Shown here piece by piece: positions 1 through 11,024 of a stretch of 35,816 nucleotides of DNA (positions are counted from its first letter, which is position 1; every line of letters starts with the position of its first letter). The notes under the pieces are model-generated. The model was not told the origin of the DNA, ran no database searches, and was given only the letters and a program-made list of their open reading frames with translations. Made by a program: the position numbers and the translations under genes. The DNA comes from Patescibacteria group bacterium. Its GTDB lineage: Bacteria; Patescibacteriota; Minisyncoccia; UBA6257; HR35. Where the stretch lies: contig JANXBL010000003.1 of the NCBI GenBank assembly GCA_025060575.1, positions 1-35,816 of the forward strand, in the 5' to 3' direction.

Positions 1-76
1 TAGCTTGAAAAGTAGCTGAAATATCACCAGATCTAACATTTCTTAATAATTCTGAAGGAGAAGGAAAGTTTGGCAT
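1..76 (-). CDS. 5' fragment of a hypothetical protein running off the window edge (MPNFPSPSELLRNVRSGDISATFQA...)
   Basis: ATG at 76-74 and an open frame to position 1, divergent from the tRNA. Only 25 codons are visible. Confidence 0.45.
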   Translation of the reverse strand, partial: MPNFPSPSELLRNVRSGDISATFQA

Positions 77-111
77 TATGTCAAATTAATTTTAAAATAA
101 AAATATTATTC

Positions 112-184
112 GCCCCTGTAGCTCAATTGGAAGAGCGTGTGGCTTCGGACCACAAGGTTGGGGGTTCGAGTCCCTCCAGGGGCA
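112..184 (+). tRNA. tRNA-Arg, anticodon TCG (no encoded CCA)
   Basis: Cloverleaf: acceptor GCCCCTG/CAGGGGC, D-stem GCTC/GAGC, anticodon stem TGTGG/CCACA with loop CT-TCG-GA, T-arm GGGGG-TTCGAGT-CCCTC, discriminator A184. Confidence 0.96.
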
Positions 185-186
185 AA

Positions 187-1191
187 TCATAACTTTCCTC
201 TTCTTATCTTTTCATACCAGTATGTTAAATAATATTTAAAGGAAAAACGATAGTCAAAGGTAGGCAACAGATTTATTAAATGTCCGCCAAAACCTTTTTT
301 AAATTGGCTTAATCCATGCCAAGGGTGATTAGAGTCACTTTTCCTGGCTATTCCCCAGAAATTGTAAAATTTACAGCCTCTTCTCTTGGCTTCCTGAATA
401 ACTGTCCATTGCAGTTTATAGTTTAACGGTTCTTTAATTGGCAATGAAGCAGAATGATGATAAAAGGCAATATTATGAGAAAAAATAATGAGGGCAGCTG
501 AACAGTATGAGTTTTCTACTTTTCCTAAAAATAGAAGCGCTTTATTTTTTTGGGTAAAAATTTTAAACTCTTCTTCAATTAATTTTTGCGGATAGGGAAC
601 AAAATTTTTTCTCTTACTTAATTCTTGATAAAGATCGAAGAAAATTTTTAAACTATCAATGTCTGATTTTATTTCAATTTCTAGAAAGGGTTTCTTTAGG
701 CTATCAACAACCATTTTTCGATGACCATCACTCATCTCTTCTAACATTTTTTTATCATCATCTATCTTTTTCAACCAGAAATTTTCAGTGACTGCATAAG
801 TAGGAGCAAGCCTAAAGCCTAGAGATTTAAAAATTTCTTTAATTTCATTGTCAGTTTGAATGGGGTTGATTCTTAAAAAATCATATTTTTTATGAAATTT
901 TTTTTCTTTCAAAAAATTTAACAATGATAACAAACATTCTTTTAGATGATCATTTTTTGTGACTGGGCCATGATGGACAACTAATCCATTCCCTCTTTTT
1001 CCTCGATAACCAATAAGCTGACATAATCCTACAATTTCTTTTTCATATATAAAACCCAGATTTAAAACTTCTCTTCCTAGGCTTTTTTCTGCTTGACCAT
1101 ATTCGTAATCTTGAAGAAAACTTAGATAATCATTTTTATCCAAAAAATCATTCCATAGCTTTTCATTATCAATTTTTTCAATTCTAATCAT
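187..1191 (-). CDS. FemAB/FemX-family aminoacyl-tRNA-dependent transferase (annotated as peptidoglycan bridge formation glycyltransferase)
   Basis: W-N-D-F...SFLQ N-terminus, HGPV motif, LQW..IQEAK..G...YNFWGI and GL..FKKGFGG C-terminal signature. Confidence 0.88.
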   Translation of the reverse strand: MIRIEKIDNEKLWNDFLDKNDYLSFLQDYEYGQAEKSLGREVLNLGFIYEKEIVGLCQLIGYRGKRGNGLVVHHGPVTKNDHLKECLLSLLNFLKEKKFHKKYDFLRINPIQTDNEIKEIFKSLGFRLAPTYAVTENFWLKKIDDDKKMLEEMSDGHRKMVVDSLKKPFLEIEIKSDIDSLKIFFDLYQELSKRKNFVPYPQKLIEEEFKIFTQKNKALLFLGKVENSYCSAALIIFSHNIAFYHHSASLPIKEPLNYKLQWTVIQEAKRRGCKFYNFWGIARKSDSNHPWHGLSQFKKGFGGHLINLLPTFDYRFSFKYYLTYWYEKIRRGKL

Positions 1192-1226
1192 TTTTTAATT
1201 TTAAAAAATTTTATCAATTTGATAAT

Positions 1227-1256
1227 TTGACAAAATTAAAAAGTTTGTTATAAAAT
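1227..1256 (+). promoter_or_regulatory. sigma70-type promoter pointing into the GC-rich intergenic element
   Basis: TTGACA 1227-1232. The -10 is either TG-T-TATAAA 1246-1254 (16-nt spacer) or TAAAAT 1251-1256 (18-nt spacer). Confidence 0.65.
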
Positions 1257-1262
1257 TTATAT

Positions 1263-1447
1263 TAGTAACCAGCTGCCAAGGTCGGGGGTTTTTCTGGGCT
1301 TTCCACAATCAGCTGCCACTTGGCAAGCCTATCAGCCAATCCAATCTTTTGGATGGCTGTGCTGCTTGCCACCCTGAATCCACCCGCCACAACCCGACTT
1401 TTTAAGCCGGGAGGGCTTTGCTCTCCTTTCACCTCCCGGCTCTTTTT
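1263..1447 (+). ncRNA. Candidate structured non-coding RNA (irregular rod, possibly 6S-like; family unassigned)
   Basis: 56% GC over 1271-1440 (96/170 by hand count) in an AT-rich genome. Nested stems 1278-1286/1393-1401, 1295-1298/1383-1386, 1309-1312/1374-1377, 1321-1328/1364-1371, 1333-1338/1354-1359, 1340-1344/1349-1353. Promoter upstream and terminator downstream. Confidence 0.6.
1405..1447 (+). terminator. Intrinsic terminator-like hairpin overlapping the DegT stop codon
   Basis: AGCCGGGAGG (1405-1414) pairs perfectly with CCTCCCGGCT (1432-1441), followed by CTTTTT. The loop is long (17 nt). Confidence 0.55.
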
Positions 1448-2640
1448 ACTATATCTATTATTTTTTCGGCAATTTTTTCGTTAACATCAATGTGCGTTGG
1501 GAGATTTAAAACTTTGCCACCCAATTGTTCTGCCTTAGGACAGCTGTTTACTTGATAATCAAAATTTTTTGGATCAGAATAAGGGATTAAAACAAAGTTA
1601 TACCAGTCACCTAGATATATCTTTTCTTTTTTCATAAGTTTGACTATTTCTATTCTTTTTTCTGTAAGGAGGGGGAATCTTAAAAATATTGGTTGAGAAA
1701 AATTGTTAGTTTTAAAAGTCTCCAGTCCAGCCTCTTTATATAAGGAAGAAATTAATTGGCGATGTTGATTAAATCTTTCTAATTTCTTAAGCTGGTTAAC
1801 CAAAAGAGGCATAAGAACTCCAGGTAATTTTTTGAGATAATCGTAAGGTTTTTGGCCTAATTTTTCCTTTTCTGAGACCATTTCATTAAGCATCTTAAAC
1901 TTCCTAAGTAGTTTGACGGCGGATTTAGTCAAGAAATTATAATTTCTTTTAAGTCTAAATAAAACTACACCAGTTAATAAAATTTTTTTTATTTCCATGC
2001 CACTAGGCTCGTTGATTTTTTCATAAGCATCGTCTAGTTTTGAGATTAAAGATTGATTGTTAACTACTAATGCTCCACCGACAATACTTGATATTACCTT
2101 GTTTCTATTAAAACTTAGTAAGGCTACATCACCGAAATTGCCCAGATAGTTATTTTTAAATTTTGCTCCCAATGAGTGGGTTAAATTTTCGATCACCACT
2201 AAATTGTTTTCTTTCGCTATGGTCATAATTTCATCCATCTTAGCTGGCAGACCAAATGTGTTCTGAATAACTATTGCCTGCACTTCCTCTTTTATTTTTC
2301 TCTTAAGATCTTCAATGCTGATATTAAAACTTTCATCAATATCAACATAAATAGGCCTTAAACCGGCAAACTTAATAGCATTGGGAACGACTATACAAGA
2401 AAAGGCTTGAGTGATAACCGCTGATCTATTTTCTAGGCTAGAGAGAAGAAAGGTTAGAGCGCTTCTGGCTGATTTAAAAAAATAGACTTTAGCGTTAGGA
2501 AAATATCTTGCCAAAATTTCTCTGGCCTCTTTTTCTAGGGCTGAGGTGTCATATTTTTTACCTTGCAAAATACCCTTTATTATTTCATGGTCATCATTTT
2601 CAAAATTTGGCACTATATCAATGCTGATTATTTCTGGCAT
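1429..2640 (-). CDS. DegT/DnrJ/EryC1/StrS-family PLP-dependent aminotransferase
   Basis: SARSAL, QAFSCIVVPNAI, QNTFGLPA, IENLTHSLGA, SFNRNK (PLP lysine), GGALV, CPKAE..LNLPTH. Confidence 0.9.
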   Translation of the reverse strand: MPEIISIDIVPNFENDDHEIIKGILQGKKYDTSALEKEAREILARYFPNAKVYFFKSARSALTFLLSSLENRSAVITQAFSCIVVPNAIKFAGLRPIYVDIDESFNISIEDLKRKIKEEVQAIVIQNTFGLPAKMDEIMTIAKENNLVVIENLTHSLGAKFKNNYLGNFGDVALLSFNRNKVISSIVGGALVVNNQSLISKLDDAYEKINEPSGMEIKKILLTGVVLFRLKRNYNFLTKSAVKLLRKFKMLNEMVSEKEKLGQKPYDYLKKLPGVLMPLLVNQLKKLERFNQHRQLISSLYKEAGLETFKTNNFSQPIFLRFPLLTEKRIEIVKLMKKEKIYLGDWYNFVLIPYSDPKNFDYQVNSCPKAEQLGGKVLNLPTHIDVNEKIAEKIIDIVKRAGR

Positions 2641-2663
2641 CTATAACTAGATTTTAAGGTATT

Positions 2664-2700
2664 TGTTCTATAATTTACTTAGAACACTCTAGACGGAGGT
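2664..2700 (+). promoter_or_regulatory. -10 box inside an inverted repeat, plus Shine-Dalgarno for ORF 2710
   Basis: TATAAT 2669-2674; perfect IR TGTTCTA (2664-2670)/TAGAACA (2680-2686); GGAGGT 2695-2700, 9 nt before the ATG. Confidence 0.55.
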
Positions 2701-2709
2701 GCTGAAAAA

Positions 2710-2988
2710 ATGGAATTAAACGTCCGAAATGTAAGAGTGAGGTACGAGATACTTTCAACCTCTTATCTTTCACCAGGGGAGAATATGACTAGAAATTCCT
2801 CTATCGTTGCGACAGACCTTCCTTCTGGTCAACTGGTGAAAATGAGCCTGGAGGCCACTATCACTATGAAAGTGATGGTAACCTCCTATGGCCATACCAA
2901 AGGCGAAGCGTTTAATAACGCCGCTAAAATGGTAGAAAAACTTATCCCCTCCTCTAGGAAAATCTTTCAACTTCGCTTCTCAGACTAA
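2710..2988 (+). CDS. Small hypothetical protein (92 aa), possible dodecin-like/HicB-like beta-alpha motif
   Basis: Strong SD, own -10 and own terminator. Motif VMVTSYGHTKGEAFNNA. Confidence 0.65.
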   Translation: MELNVRNVRVRYEILSTSYLSPGENMTRNSSIVATDLPSGQLVKMSLEATITMKVMVTSYGHTKGEAFNNAAKMVEKLIPSSRKIFQLRFSD

Positions 2989-3004
2989 CATGAAGACCAA
3001 TGGC

Positions 3005-3038
3005 TGGTGGCCGTGAGACGGTCACCATTATTTTTTTT
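3005..3038 (+). terminator. Intrinsic terminator
   Basis: TGGTGGCCGT-GAG-ACGGTCACCA (10 bp, with a G-U pair on + only), followed by TTATTTTTTTT. Confidence 0.8.
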
Positions 3039-3042
3039 GTAA

Positions 3043-4611
3043 CTAATTCAAACCGATAAAGCGATTGAAATAGTTATTAAACTTAGCTGGTAATCTGTTC
3101 ATAATCCATACACCAACCTTTTTCATCTTTAATGTTTTTAGGAACAGTTCCATTTCGGTTAAATCCTCAACAATCATCACTCGATCAAGTAAAATTTTTC
3201 TAAAAATTTCGTAATGGTCATTTGAGGTAAGGATAACTTTATCAAAGCTTTTTAATTTTTGAGCTAACTCTTGATAGATCTTTTGAGTTTCTTTCCCTAA
3301 TTCGAAAAGTCCATTAAAAATAATCAGTTTATAGTCAAGCTTTAATTTTTCAAAAAAATCTAAAGAGCTAAAAACGCCATGAGGGTTAGCATTGTATGAG
3401 TCATCAAAAATATAAAAATTTTCTATTCTTTTCAATTTTAAAAATCCTTCCGGCAATTCGATCTTTTCGACCACCTCGCTGTAATCGTTAATATCATCAA
3501 TTTTTGAGATATAAGCTAAAGCACCGCAAAGATTTTCAATCTGCATAGGAAAGATAATTTTGCTCTTTAAAACTATTTCATCCGATAAATACTTAAATTT
3601 AAAAACAGTTCTTTCTAAATCATTTTGTAGTATTTTATAGGCAAAATCTCCTTCTAGACCATAGGTATAAATTTCTATCCTTCTATCTCCAATAGCATTT
3701 TTTACTTCCTTCTTAAGTTCATTCACATATTCGTGGTTATTGTTTATAAAAATAGTTCCCTCTTTCATCCAACTCAAAACCTCAATTCCCTCACCTCTCA
3801 TAATATTTTTTATATTGCCAAAGAGAAACAAATGCTGTTTAGTGATGCCTGTGATATATGCTATTTTGGGAGTAATAAATTTTGTTATCCATTTAACGTT
3901 CCCCAGATAATACGAGCCGAACTCTATCACGAGAAAGTCGTAATTATCTAATTTGCTTTTATCGATAAACTTTAACAGAGCTAATTCATGATTAATTCTA
4001 GGAGGAGGAGCTAAAACATGGTATTTTTTCCTTAGCAGTTGAACCAATAACTCCTTTGTTGTTGATTTACCATAGCTACCTACTATACCAATTATTTTTA
4101 AAGATTCATTTTGATCAAGTTTCTTTTTAACTCTATTGCCGAGCCAAATCATATAGGGTTTAGCAATTAGGTAGCTTATCTTACTTGCAATAGTGAAAAT
4201 TAAAAATTGACTTGACCAAAAAGATAAGCCAGCCACTACTAAAATATCGTTTCTAAAAATGTTTAATATCCAAAAGTTCAAAACAAGAGATATTGCTAAA
4301 ATTATGGTTGCTCTAAGAGTAAAGCTTATCTTTTTGATTAATCTAAAACGCAAAACTAATAAAATAGCTAAGATAAGGAGGAGAAAATCCGTGGGATATT
4401 TGTCTATCGAAAAATCAAGTATAAATATAAGTAAGAATATTAACCAAAGAAGATATTCTTTAACATTAAAAATAAATTTTTTTGAGCTTTCTAGAAAAAA
4501 ATGAGCCCTAACTCTTCTTAGTAGATAGTCCTTGATTTGATAAATTCTCAAAACTGGAAAGCCATTAATAAAGATAATAATTAAAGAAAGCAAAAAGCTG
4601 GTGATCATCAT
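3043..4611 (-). CDS. murF: Mur ligase, MurF-type, with an N-terminal multi-pass membrane domain
   Basis: P-loop GIVGSYGKSTTKE, VIEFG, TGITKQHL, DDSYNANP, GLFELG; hydrophobic N-terminal ~150 aa. Confidence 0.8.
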   Translation of the reverse strand: MMITSFLLSLIIIFINGFPVLRIYQIKDYLLRRVRAHFFLESSKKFIFNVKEYLLWLIFLLIFILDFSIDKYPTDFLLLILAILLVLRFRLIKKISFTLRATIILAISLVLNFWILNIFRNDILVVAGLSFWSSQFLIFTIASKISYLIAKPYMIWLGNRVKKKLDQNESLKIIGIVGSYGKSTTKELLVQLLRKKYHVLAPPPRINHELALLKFIDKSKLDNYDFLVIEFGSYYLGNVKWITKFITPKIAYITGITKQHLFLFGNIKNIMRGEGIEVLSWMKEGTIFINNNHEYVNELKKEVKNAIGDRRIEIYTYGLEGDFAYKILQNDLERTVFKFKYLSDEIVLKSKIIFPMQIENLCGALAYISKIDDINDYSEVVEKIELPEGFLKLKRIENFYIFDDSYNANPHGVFSSLDFFEKLKLDYKLIIFNGLFELGKETQKIYQELAQKLKSFDKVILTSNDHYEIFRKILLDRVMIVEDLTEMELFLKTLKMKKVGVWIMNRLPAKFNNYFNRFIGLN

Positions 4612-10951: not shown

Positions 10952-11024
10952 GCGGCGGTAGTTCAGTTGGTAGAACGTCTCCCTTCCAAGGAGAAAGTCG
11001 CGGGTTCGAATCCCGTCCGCCGCT
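10952..11024 (+). tRNA. tRNA-Gly, anticodon TCC (no encoded CCA)
   Basis: Acceptor GCGGCGG/CCGCCGC, D-stem GTTC/GAAC, anticodon stem TCTCC/GGAGA with loop CT-TCC-AA, T-arm GCGGG-TTCGAAT-CCCGT, discriminator T. Confidence 0.96.

Follow-up and report, generated by a model that had tools for sequence, protein, structure and literature searches.

A candidate small RNA gene with a conserved C/U-rich terminator loop in a reduced Patescibacteria genome

The small RNAs (sRNAs) LhrC and RoxS/RsaE pair with translation start regions through C/U-rich seeds, and in LhrC it is UCCC motifs that pair with ribosome-binding sites. Conserved C- or CU-rich unpaired motifs are found in RoxS/RsaE and likewise in 6C RNA, Yfr1, CcsR ('cuckoo') and Bacillaceae-1. 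To our knowledge, regulatory sRNAs are essentially uncharted in ultra-small genomes of the candidate phyla radiation (CPR-like genomes) and in Armatimonadota. Here we analyze a candidate sRNA gene with a C/U-rich loop on the plus strand of a 35,816-nucleotide stretch of DNA from a Patescibacteria group bacterium. This stretch, hereafter the window, is contig C33 of an assembly of 626,735 bp in 54 contigs (97% complete, 32.1% GC), which by its size and composition is called ultra-small and CPR-like here.

The locus is very probably a real, unannotated and expressed sRNA gene of the plus strand, judging from several features of the DNA. Its gene-like anatomy, its strand, its membership of a hairpin family and the covariation of the hairpin stem are computational results. 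The hairpin, described by a covariance model (R1) and 36 distinct sequences, points to a new sRNA family that is not in Rfam. A preliminary description of this DNA had proposed an unannotated plus-strand RNA gene with its own promoter and terminator. The GC-rich intergenic position, the stable fold, the U-run and a conserved hairpin with strand-specific G-U pairs all bear that proposal out.

Promoter, terminator and predicted fold

Upstream of the predicted RNA, the -35 and -10 boxes (Table 1) lie where they had first been reported. With their 18-nt spacer they agree with the consensus at 11 of 12 positions and form the best promoter-like site in positions 1-4000 of the window. Promoter-like sites are common here, with 21 in the first 4 kb against 15.0 ± 4.0 expected. 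From the usual spacing to the -10 box, transcription would start near 1263-1265. The GC-rich island noted earlier was recovered as well: positions 1271-1440 are 56.5% GC, compared with 8.6% in the 70 nt upstream (1192-1261), 30.4% in the 250 nt downstream and 33.3% in the window as a whole. No open reading frame (ORF) of at least 100 aa covers the island.

At the 3' end, a 10-bp GC-rich stem followed by CUUUUU has the anatomy of an intrinsic terminator. The terminator scan accepted loops of 3-8 nt, and this hairpin, with its atypical 17-nt loop, was hence not listed by it. The hairpin and T run that had been described are both present, and the U-run follows the hairpin on the plus strand only, with none on the minus strand. 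The preliminary description treated the hairpin as a generic terminator; it is also the sole conserved part of the RNA, as described below.

The whole RNA (1262-1447, plus strand) folds with -69.6 kcal/mol, against -53.3 ± 3.8 kcal/mol for shuffled sequences (z = -4.28; none of 200 shuffles was as stable). The 5' domain alone, an irregular rod, reaches -47.2 kcal/mol (z = -3.73, again with none of 200 as stable). The minus strand is likewise stable, with z = -3.57 for the whole RNA and -2.95 for the rod, so fold energy cannot choose the strand. The plus strand is favoured because the U-run is found only there, because the promoter lies there and because of the family evidence. The rod, put at about 125 nt in the preliminary description, spans 124 nt, and all helices named at that time are in the minimum-free-energy fold. 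Two G-U pairs had been offered as signs of the plus strand; G1280-U1399 is in the fold, but T1295-G1386 is absent, position 1295 being a bulge.

The unpaired segments of the RNA are 70% C+U (33 of 47 nt), and CCAC motifs occur five times in it, against 1.04 expected from mononucleotide shuffles (P = 0.0018). One CCAC-rich segment of the rod, CCACCCGCCACAA, loosely resembles the CACC/CCAC 5' segments of other family members in a comparison made by eye.

No homologue of the rod was found by blastn of the 186-nt sequence against 60 relatives, by a single-sequence covariance model (R2) in 40 relatives, or by R2 in 121 genomes of the Armatimonadota-side phylum, the last search having been run without a positive control. 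As far as tested in these searches, the rod appears to be lineage-specific. Three DNA runs, all from one study and bearing the label hot springs metagenome, contain the stretch. A second sample (run X2) spans 1184-1403 with 0 differences while the flanking coding DNA varies; strain variation of the rod therefore yields no covariation data.

Distribution and covariation of the terminator hairpin

The blastn search that left the rod without homologues matched only the last 38 nt of the 186, and did so in three genomes from the host's family (G022, G015 and G017; a fourth relative, G007, and the host's own genome, G000, are cited below). In these three hairpins the loop is kept, the stem is different yet still pairs, and a T-run comes next. 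An exact 20-mer pattern of the loop has a single occurrence in the own genome; within the order, 4 of 401 genomes carry it, all from one family. One exact scan of metagenomes found the pattern at 10 loci, eight of them with a flanking stem and T-run, and one scan of species-representative genomes found it at 14 loci, 12 with a stem. Ten of these 12 are titled Armatimonadota, Armatimonadetes, Chthonomonadaceae, Fimbriimonadales or Fimbriimonadaceae, and the remaining two are metagenome-assembled genomes (MAGs) of the window's family. The two loci without a hairpin come from Pirellulaceae and Blautia; read on the other strand, the Blautia match looks like an ordinary ribosome-binding site with an ATG after it. 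The exact loop motif was not found in viral contigs, and blastn returned no match in plasmids or phages.

Model R1 was built from 15 sequences, the window's own among them. In the 15-hairpin alignment, both partners have changed in eight of the 11 stem pairs, and the observed covariation is matched by 0 of 500 shuffles. When 40 matches (36 distinct sequences) are aligned, both partners have changed in every one of the 11 pairs, pairing extends to 93.6% of cells and covariation scores 0.849, with shuffles at 0.200; these figures are flattered by the alignment having been fitted to R1. By our tally, the pair table holds 32 G-U cells, which would be A-C mismatches on the opposite strand and therefore support the strand that bears the U-run; in the family alignment, a U-run follows the hairpin.

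Across the family the stem, 10-11 bp long, covaries freely, and the loop is far more constant. The loop columns UUUG-CUCUCCUUU are at least 90% conserved, and the more diverged members keep mainly CUCUCCUUU. The window's loop agrees with the family consensus GGCUUUGCUCUCCUUUCAC in every loop column, and its stem, AGCCGGGAGG/CCUCCCGGCU, is unlike that of every other member yet fully paired.

At 50 bits or more, R1 matches G000, G015, G022 and, twice, G017, and weaker CU-loop hairpins are present elsewhere in the family. Of 121 genomes sampled across the window's phylum, a set that drew on other families, only the own genome matches at E <= 1e-4, and the 120 others are without a match. In the phylum of the Fimbriimonadales MAG G401, at least 22 of 121 genomes match, a lower bound because filters scored 50 candidates per genome. 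The own genome holds one copy, and the family usually occurs once per genome. The carriers labelled Armatimonadota have genomes of 2-8 Mb and account for most of the members found; a few genera of the window's ultra-small-genome family carry the hairpin as well. The preliminary description had spoken of a new small-RNA class in a reduced genome; the newness is upheld, in that nothing in Rfam 15 matches and the hairpin defines a family of its own, but the class is not special to reduced genomes.

Two types can be distinguished among the Armatimonadota-labelled members. In type 1, a box resembling a -10 element (identified by eye) comes first, then the conserved segment GAUUCGAGUUCACCUUCCUUCC of 22 nt, taken to be unpaired, and finally the hairpin, giving an RNA of ~70 nt. 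Its neighbours vary (ParB, PolI 5'-3' exonuclease, DUF520 and GreA), which fits a stand-alone gene. Type 2 has a slightly different loop and occupies a fixed site between trpF and an ABC-transporter gene. Longer 5' parts of ~60 nt are found at L065 and L045. Since 5' lengths differ among members, the 5' domain is the variable part and the 3' module the constant one. The window's copy is the extreme case, with the 124-nt rod in place of the usual short (20-45 nt) C/U-rich 5' segment.

Between the G022 hairpin and one from Fimbriimonadales, 43 of 48 positions agree (our count). Because the distribution is patchy and such hairpins are near-identical, gene transfer between the ultra-small-genome group and Fimbriimonadales/Armatimonadota is suggested. 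Bacterial sRNAs rarely retain a loop over 17-20 nt in two phyla so far apart, and this points to gene transfer or to a very conserved partner.

Relatives of the host also contain other hairpins with a U-run and C/U- or C-rich loops: L082 and L083 (G022), L073 (G007), L078 (G014), L079 (G013) and L084 (G017), with another in L003 (G015:C11), ~55 nt upstream of the family hairpin. Some of the relatives' small hairpin RNAs begin with a CACCUCC-like sequence, for example CACCUCCUU in G007. These loci suggest a wider set of CU-rich sRNAs in a lineage whose 16S rRNA is without the anti-Shine-Dalgarno (anti-SD) sequence.

The candidate sRNA sits in a 237-nt spacer separating two minus-strand genes, divergent from the FemAB-family gene and convergent with the DegT/DnrJ-family gene. 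From the distance between its promoter-like site and its ATG, the FemAB-family messenger RNA (mRNA) would be leaderless.

Table 1. Features of the candidate sRNA locus, with its flanking genes and AAGGAGG-box genes of the host genome; positions are those of the window unless a contig of G000 is given.
Feature	Position	Strand	Basis or remark
FemAB-family gene	187-1191	-	ATG at 1191
Divergent promoter-like site TTATCA-16-TAAAAT	1198-1225	-	9/12 positions; 6 nt upstream of FemAB-family ATG
-35 box TTGACA	1227-1232	+	in 8.6% GC spacer
-10 box TAAAAT	1251-1256	+	18-nt spacer from -35 box
Predicted transcript, ~184 nt	1264-1447	+	promoter, fold, plus-strand U-run
5' domain, irregular 124-nt rod, 37 predicted base pairs	1278-1401	+	fold
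Predicted closing stem AAGGUCGGG/CCCGACUUU	1278-1286 with 1393-1401	+	minimum-free-energy fold of 1262-1447
One-sided 22-nt internal loop CUUUCCACAAUCAGCUGCCACU, C-rich, two CCAC motifs	1299-1320	+	mean unpaired probability 0.84
Predicted apical arm: 8-, 6- and 5-bp helices, 4x4 internal loop, 1-nt bulge, UCUU end loop	1321-1371	+	fold
Predicted helix UGGCAAGC/GCUUGCCA	1321-1328 with 1364-1371	+	minimum-free-energy fold
Predicted helix CAGCCA/UGGCUG	1333-1338 with 1354-1359	+	minimum-free-energy fold
UCCAA-UCUU-UUGGA	1340-1353	+	minimum-free-energy fold
CCACCCGCCACAA, CCAC-rich, partly unpaired, just 5' of closing-stem 3' strand	1380-1392	+	1385-1392 unpaired probability 0.84
Conserved module, 10-bp GC-rich stem and loop, also intrinsic terminator	1405-1441	+	model R1, 64.5 bits, E = 7.8e-16
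10-bp hairpin AGCCGGGAGG/CCUCCCGGCU	1405-1414 with 1432-1441	+	minimum-free-energy fold; CUUUUU next
17-nt loop GCUUUGCUCUCCUUUCA, C/U-rich, anti-SD-like	1415-1431	+	unpaired probability 0.97; loop columns at least 90% conserved
Terminator U-run CUUUUU	1442-1447	+	U residues 1443-1447; directly after hairpin
DegT/DnrJ-family aminotransferase gene	1429-2640	-	TGA stop is reverse complement of 1429-1431, inside hairpin loop
AAGGAGG-box gene	2710-2988	+	terminator-like hairpin 3005-3027
AAGGAGG-box genes, G000	C4:314-742, C5:13460-13828, C11:34880-35287, C22:38456-38710		
AAGGAGG-box genes, G000	C22:41734-43095, C27:3602-4348, C28:1742-2662, C44:27241-27963, C51:9203-10873		

Pairing with translation starts and competing explanations

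The reading we place first, tentatively, is that the RNA may be a trans-acting riboregulator, of a family absent from Rfam, that acts by base-pairing of its loop with purine-rich sites. The locus at 1264-1447 would be transcribed independently into an sRNA of ~184 nt ending at the intrinsic terminator. The exposed C/U-rich loop would then pair with purine-rich GGAG-type sites at or near mRNA translation starts. In the window's copy, the C-rich CCAC unpaired stretches of the rod could add pairing surface. Pairing would alter the translation or stability of the mRNA, as described for other sRNAs that use C/U-rich seeds.

The loop is complementary to GGUGAAAGGAGAGCAAAGCC, a purine-rich box with a spacer. 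In G404, a Chthonomonadaceae MAG, one site (L093, G404:C179, 1501-1520) complements the loop of the sRNA encoded there in 19 of 20 positions. It lies over an SD-like box and GTG start, with an ORF of more than 500 aa running from 1520; by our rough estimate, ~0.002 such sites would be expected by chance. The ORF itself is of low complexity and has C-terminal hydrophobic segments.

Several results count against the pairing scheme. After the conserved helix-45 region, the host's own 16S rRNA (G000:C51, minus strand, downstream of 11575) continues as GGACCAAAUCUUUUUAG, in which CCUCC does not occur, and the 16S tails of G017, G007, G022 and G015 (L139-L142) are likewise without the CCUCC anti-SD core. 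The Fimbriimonadales genome G401 has the canonical tail GGAUCACCUCCUUU. Among 363 long ORFs of the host, with the first ATG of each taken as its start (some of them wrongly), GGAG stands upstream of 3.3%, against 5.5% inside genes, and promoter-like words are enriched within 22 nt of the ATG (TATAAT 31 vs 2, TAAAAT 46 vs 10). Host mRNAs are, these start regions suggest, mostly leaderless. Because the host barely uses SD sequences, generic SD blocking has little to act on.

The search for targets was similarly unfavourable. When the reverse complement of the loop was sought with up to three mismatches in nine further genomes (eight on the Armatimonadota side, one of the window's family), it returned only further sRNA copies and three-mismatch sites such as a reversed-pattern control yields too. 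The G404 site is a one-off, since nine other carriers show none like it. In the own genome, the best non-self loop duplex reaches -28.3 kcal/mol against -27.5 kcal/mol for a reversed-loop control, exact complementary words of at least 12 nt number 11 against 14 in each control, and the sites that match the loop core lie mostly inside ORFs. The own 23S rRNA offers one site, at -24.1 kcal/mol, within the control range. Invariance of the loop over 17-20 nt exceeds what a pairing seed usually needs. The rod structure is a thermodynamic prediction only, because it has no homologue that would allow covariation to be assessed, and the listed holders of the stretch, all three of them DNA runs, include no RNA run. 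With a host that is without SD usage and no standout target, confidence in the pairing mechanism is only moderate. Expression of the sRNA, its targets and the direction of regulation are put forward as hypothesis only.

A minority of host genes does carry an SD-like box. A looser AAGGAGG-type pattern was found in 23 of 541 ORFs, from which 13-17 textbook cases were chosen by eye. In these, the AAGGAGG box stands 6-9 nt ahead of the ATG and is often preceded by an ACAC/CTCTA-like motif that they share. Many of these genes are GC-rich coding islands, and several begin like secreted or membrane proteins. In a Pfam search of 14 of them, two reached the curated cut-off (3D domain and Csx1), and a third, which neighbours a membrane protein, matched sigma-70 region 2 weakly. 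The Csx1-like CARF/HEPN protein gene lies at G000:C40:667-1977, on a 2-kb contig, and has a GGAGG box. AAGGAGG-box genes could be targets of the sRNA or a special regulon; just as plausibly, they are foreign and came from a donor that uses SD sequences. Counts of AAGGAGG-N4-9-ATG in 25 genomes of the family do not track the strong hairpin (own genome 16, control 13), which is a further point against the pairing scheme, and a link between the sRNA and GGAGG genes is not claimed for this reason. Separately, contig C1 of G401 has three 16S 3'-end motifs (273660, 276594 and 279528), exactly 2,934 nt apart, either an odd tandem arrangement or an assembly artefact.

The main rival to pairing is a decoy for a partner that recognizes the loop sequence. 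The loop, together with the CACC-UCC-type 5' segments of relatives, would mimic the 3' tail of 16S rRNA and bind a protein or ribosomal site that recognizes the anti-SD tail, instead of pairing with mRNAs. We consider this unlikely, but several observations speak for it. In two phyla the loop stays invariant over 17-20 nt although every pair of the stem changes, a pattern that a fixed partner fits better than a short seed does. Type 1 RNAs of Armatimonadota also keep their 22-nt segment, the start of the hairpin RNA in G007 matches the canonical tail of G401, and no consistent RNA target emerged. The order of motifs argues the other way, as CACC follows CUCCUUU in the loop but precedes it in the 16S tail; moreover, the host's own 16S rRNA is without the tail to be mimicked, and the protein partner is a postulate.

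Next comes the improbable case that the locus is a horizontally acquired relic, in which a hairpin from an Armatimonadota-like donor now serves as a terminator or has no function and the rod is fortuitous GC-rich DNA. The patchy distribution in the window's phylum (4 of 401 genomes of the order, 0 of 120 other genomes of the phylum), the near-identity of the G022 hairpin to a Fimbriimonadales copy and the absence of SD/anti-SD usage in the host are what a relic would leave. A relic would not explain why four genomes of the family keep the loop though their stems differ, why a near-consensus promoter lies upstream, or why 1184-1403 is identical in a second sample while flanking coding DNA varies. 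Nor is there a convergent gene that needs a plus-strand terminator with a 17-nt loop.

An antisense role in cis is doubtful to a still greater degree. Here the plus-strand RNA would act, by complementarity or by transcriptional interference, on minus-strand read-through from the DegT-like into the FemAB-like gene. Both flanking genes are on the minus strand, the DegT-like ORF ends within the hairpin loop, and, as no U-run follows the hairpin on the minus strand, read-through is plausible. The conserved module, however, occurs in unrelated neighbourhoods, so that a cis role is not what conserves it, and a promoter-like site of its own closely precedes the ATG of the FemAB-like gene.

Rather little probability is also given to a more elaborate scenario, in which a few episymbiont-like lineages with ultra-small genomes acquired an Armatimonadota sRNA from their hosts and kept it under selection, despite the loss of the anti-SD tail from their own ribosomes and the scarcity of SD boxes in their genes. 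The RNA would act on the SD-dependent translation of those hosts or supply an anti-SD-like sequence in trans for the few GC-rich GGAGG-box genes of the symbiont, many of which look secreted. Were this so, the hairpin would also mark, at the molecular level, a partnership of this lineage, as symbiont, with Armatimonadota.

The preliminary description had offered, as one of two options, a 6S-like decoy, a rod that mimics an open promoter and sequesters the RNA polymerase holoenzyme. This idea did not hold up and is now very improbable. Its appeal lay in the length of ~184 nt, the rod-like fold with a large unpaired region and the lack of a canonical 6S RNA elsewhere in the genome. The 6S model RF00013 (cut-off 46.4 bits) gave no match at E <= 10 in 1150-1520 and none at E <= 1 genome-wide, in a search of limited reach that matched only 5 of 14 control genomes. 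The large loop is one-sided (22 vs 0 nt), the transcript ends do not form a closing stem, and a separate conserved hairpin follows. Within the family, it is this different kind of hairpin that is conserved, and the rod is not.

That either short ORF, 1262-1432 (minus strand, 56 aa) or 1320-1484 (plus strand, 54 aa), is translated as a small protein gene is barely credible, for although both frames exist, Pfam matches neither of them at E <= 1, a search of 30 related genomes gave the 56-aa frame no real relative (a lone weak match falls in a tRNA cluster), the plus-strand ORF passes through the hairpin and U-run, and the family module has no conserved frame or start codon.

Pairing of the loop with purine-rich sites is, among these readings, the one we favour. 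An anti-SD-like RNA in a host whose 16S rRNA is without the anti-SD raises the matter of what such sequences do once the SD mechanism is gone. Members of the Armatimonadota have been cultivated, which makes the family bench-testable there, unlike in the window's uncultured host.

Comparison with known RNA families

Searched against Rfam 15 at the gathering threshold, the whole window contains two tRNAs only (112-184 and 10952-11024). At E <= 10 nothing credible was found in 1150-1520, and at E <= 1 nothing was found at the hairpin of seven family loci. The best alignment is to LhrC (RF00616) with 21.2 bits (E = 0.67), carried by the terminator loop; membership of LhrC was rejected, since this is far under the gathering score of 110 bits. 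The locus had been described as not a tRNA, and neither Rfam nor Aragorn calls one there; Aragorn lists 43 features in the genome, tRNA and tmRNA, none of them at C33:1262-1447. The Rfam scan thus connects the locus with no known family, whether 6S, signal recognition particle (SRP) RNA, LhrC or tRNA. A full-text search that included the loop sequence as a query retrieved, from the part of the literature it reached, nothing on this motif or on sRNAs of these phyla.

Elsewhere, the host genome has a tmRNA and an RNase P RNA (145 bits), and its other non-coding GC islands are tRNAs, rRNA pieces or without assignment. Contig C49 of G000 (527 bp) is short and very GC-rich, carries tRNA-Gln and is unlike the remaining 32% GC genome; it is probably a binning contaminant. 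Contig C47 (640 bp) is a 23S rRNA fragment.

SRP RNA was rejected as an identity, as models RF00169/RF01854 gave no match at the locus or in the genome. Across the order, 1 of 41 genomes has a match at E <= 1 and none has one over the cut-off; the sole weak match in a relative falls in apparent coding sequence. The Ffh M domain (PF02978) was found neither in the own genome nor in any of the 31 genomes that include it, and the SRP54-type GTPase domain of Ffh/FtsY (PF00448) neither in the own genome nor in 15 other genomes of the family, in searches that each matched 14 of 14 control genomes. An SRP RNA is therefore not expected, because Ffh was not found. In the rest of the order, only weak P-loop-like matches occur, in 3 of 9 genomes searched. 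The portion of the literature retrieved held nothing on a missing SRP in this lineage.

The likeness of the locus to SRP RNA lies in its GC-rich, hairpin-like form of ~100-120 nt and in its occurrence in a small genome where no other SRP RNA is apparent. The SRP RNA signature is GNRA/AGCA; here the apical loop is UCUU and the 4x4 internal loop CUAU/UGCU, in line with the earlier remark that the SRP signature is lacking and with the absence of SRP model matches and of Ffh/FtsY. With 6S RNA it shares its approximate length (~184 nt) and a rod-like fold in which a large region is unpaired. In 6S RNA, a two-sided central bubble lies between long closing and terminal helices formed from the RNA's own ends, whereas the loop here is one-sided, an extra 3' hairpin is conserved and the rod is not.

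The closer likenesses are to the C/U-rich sRNAs. RoxS/RsaE, 6C, Yfr1, CcsR and Bacillaceae-1 share with the present RNA G-poor unpaired loop segments, several copies or motifs in each RNA, and predicted pairing to purine-rich starts. It differs from them in that no Rfam model of theirs matches (E <= 10 at the locus, E <= 1 at seven relatives), in its motif UUUGCUCUCCUUU and in the phyla reached, Armatimonadota and a few ultra-small genomes, which are new for such RNAs. LhrC of Listeria is likewise a short trans-encoded sRNA with a C/U-rich stretch in the loop of its terminator hairpin. Loop sequence, phyla and 5' architecture set the two apart, the loop described here being 17-19 nt long and invariant across phyla.

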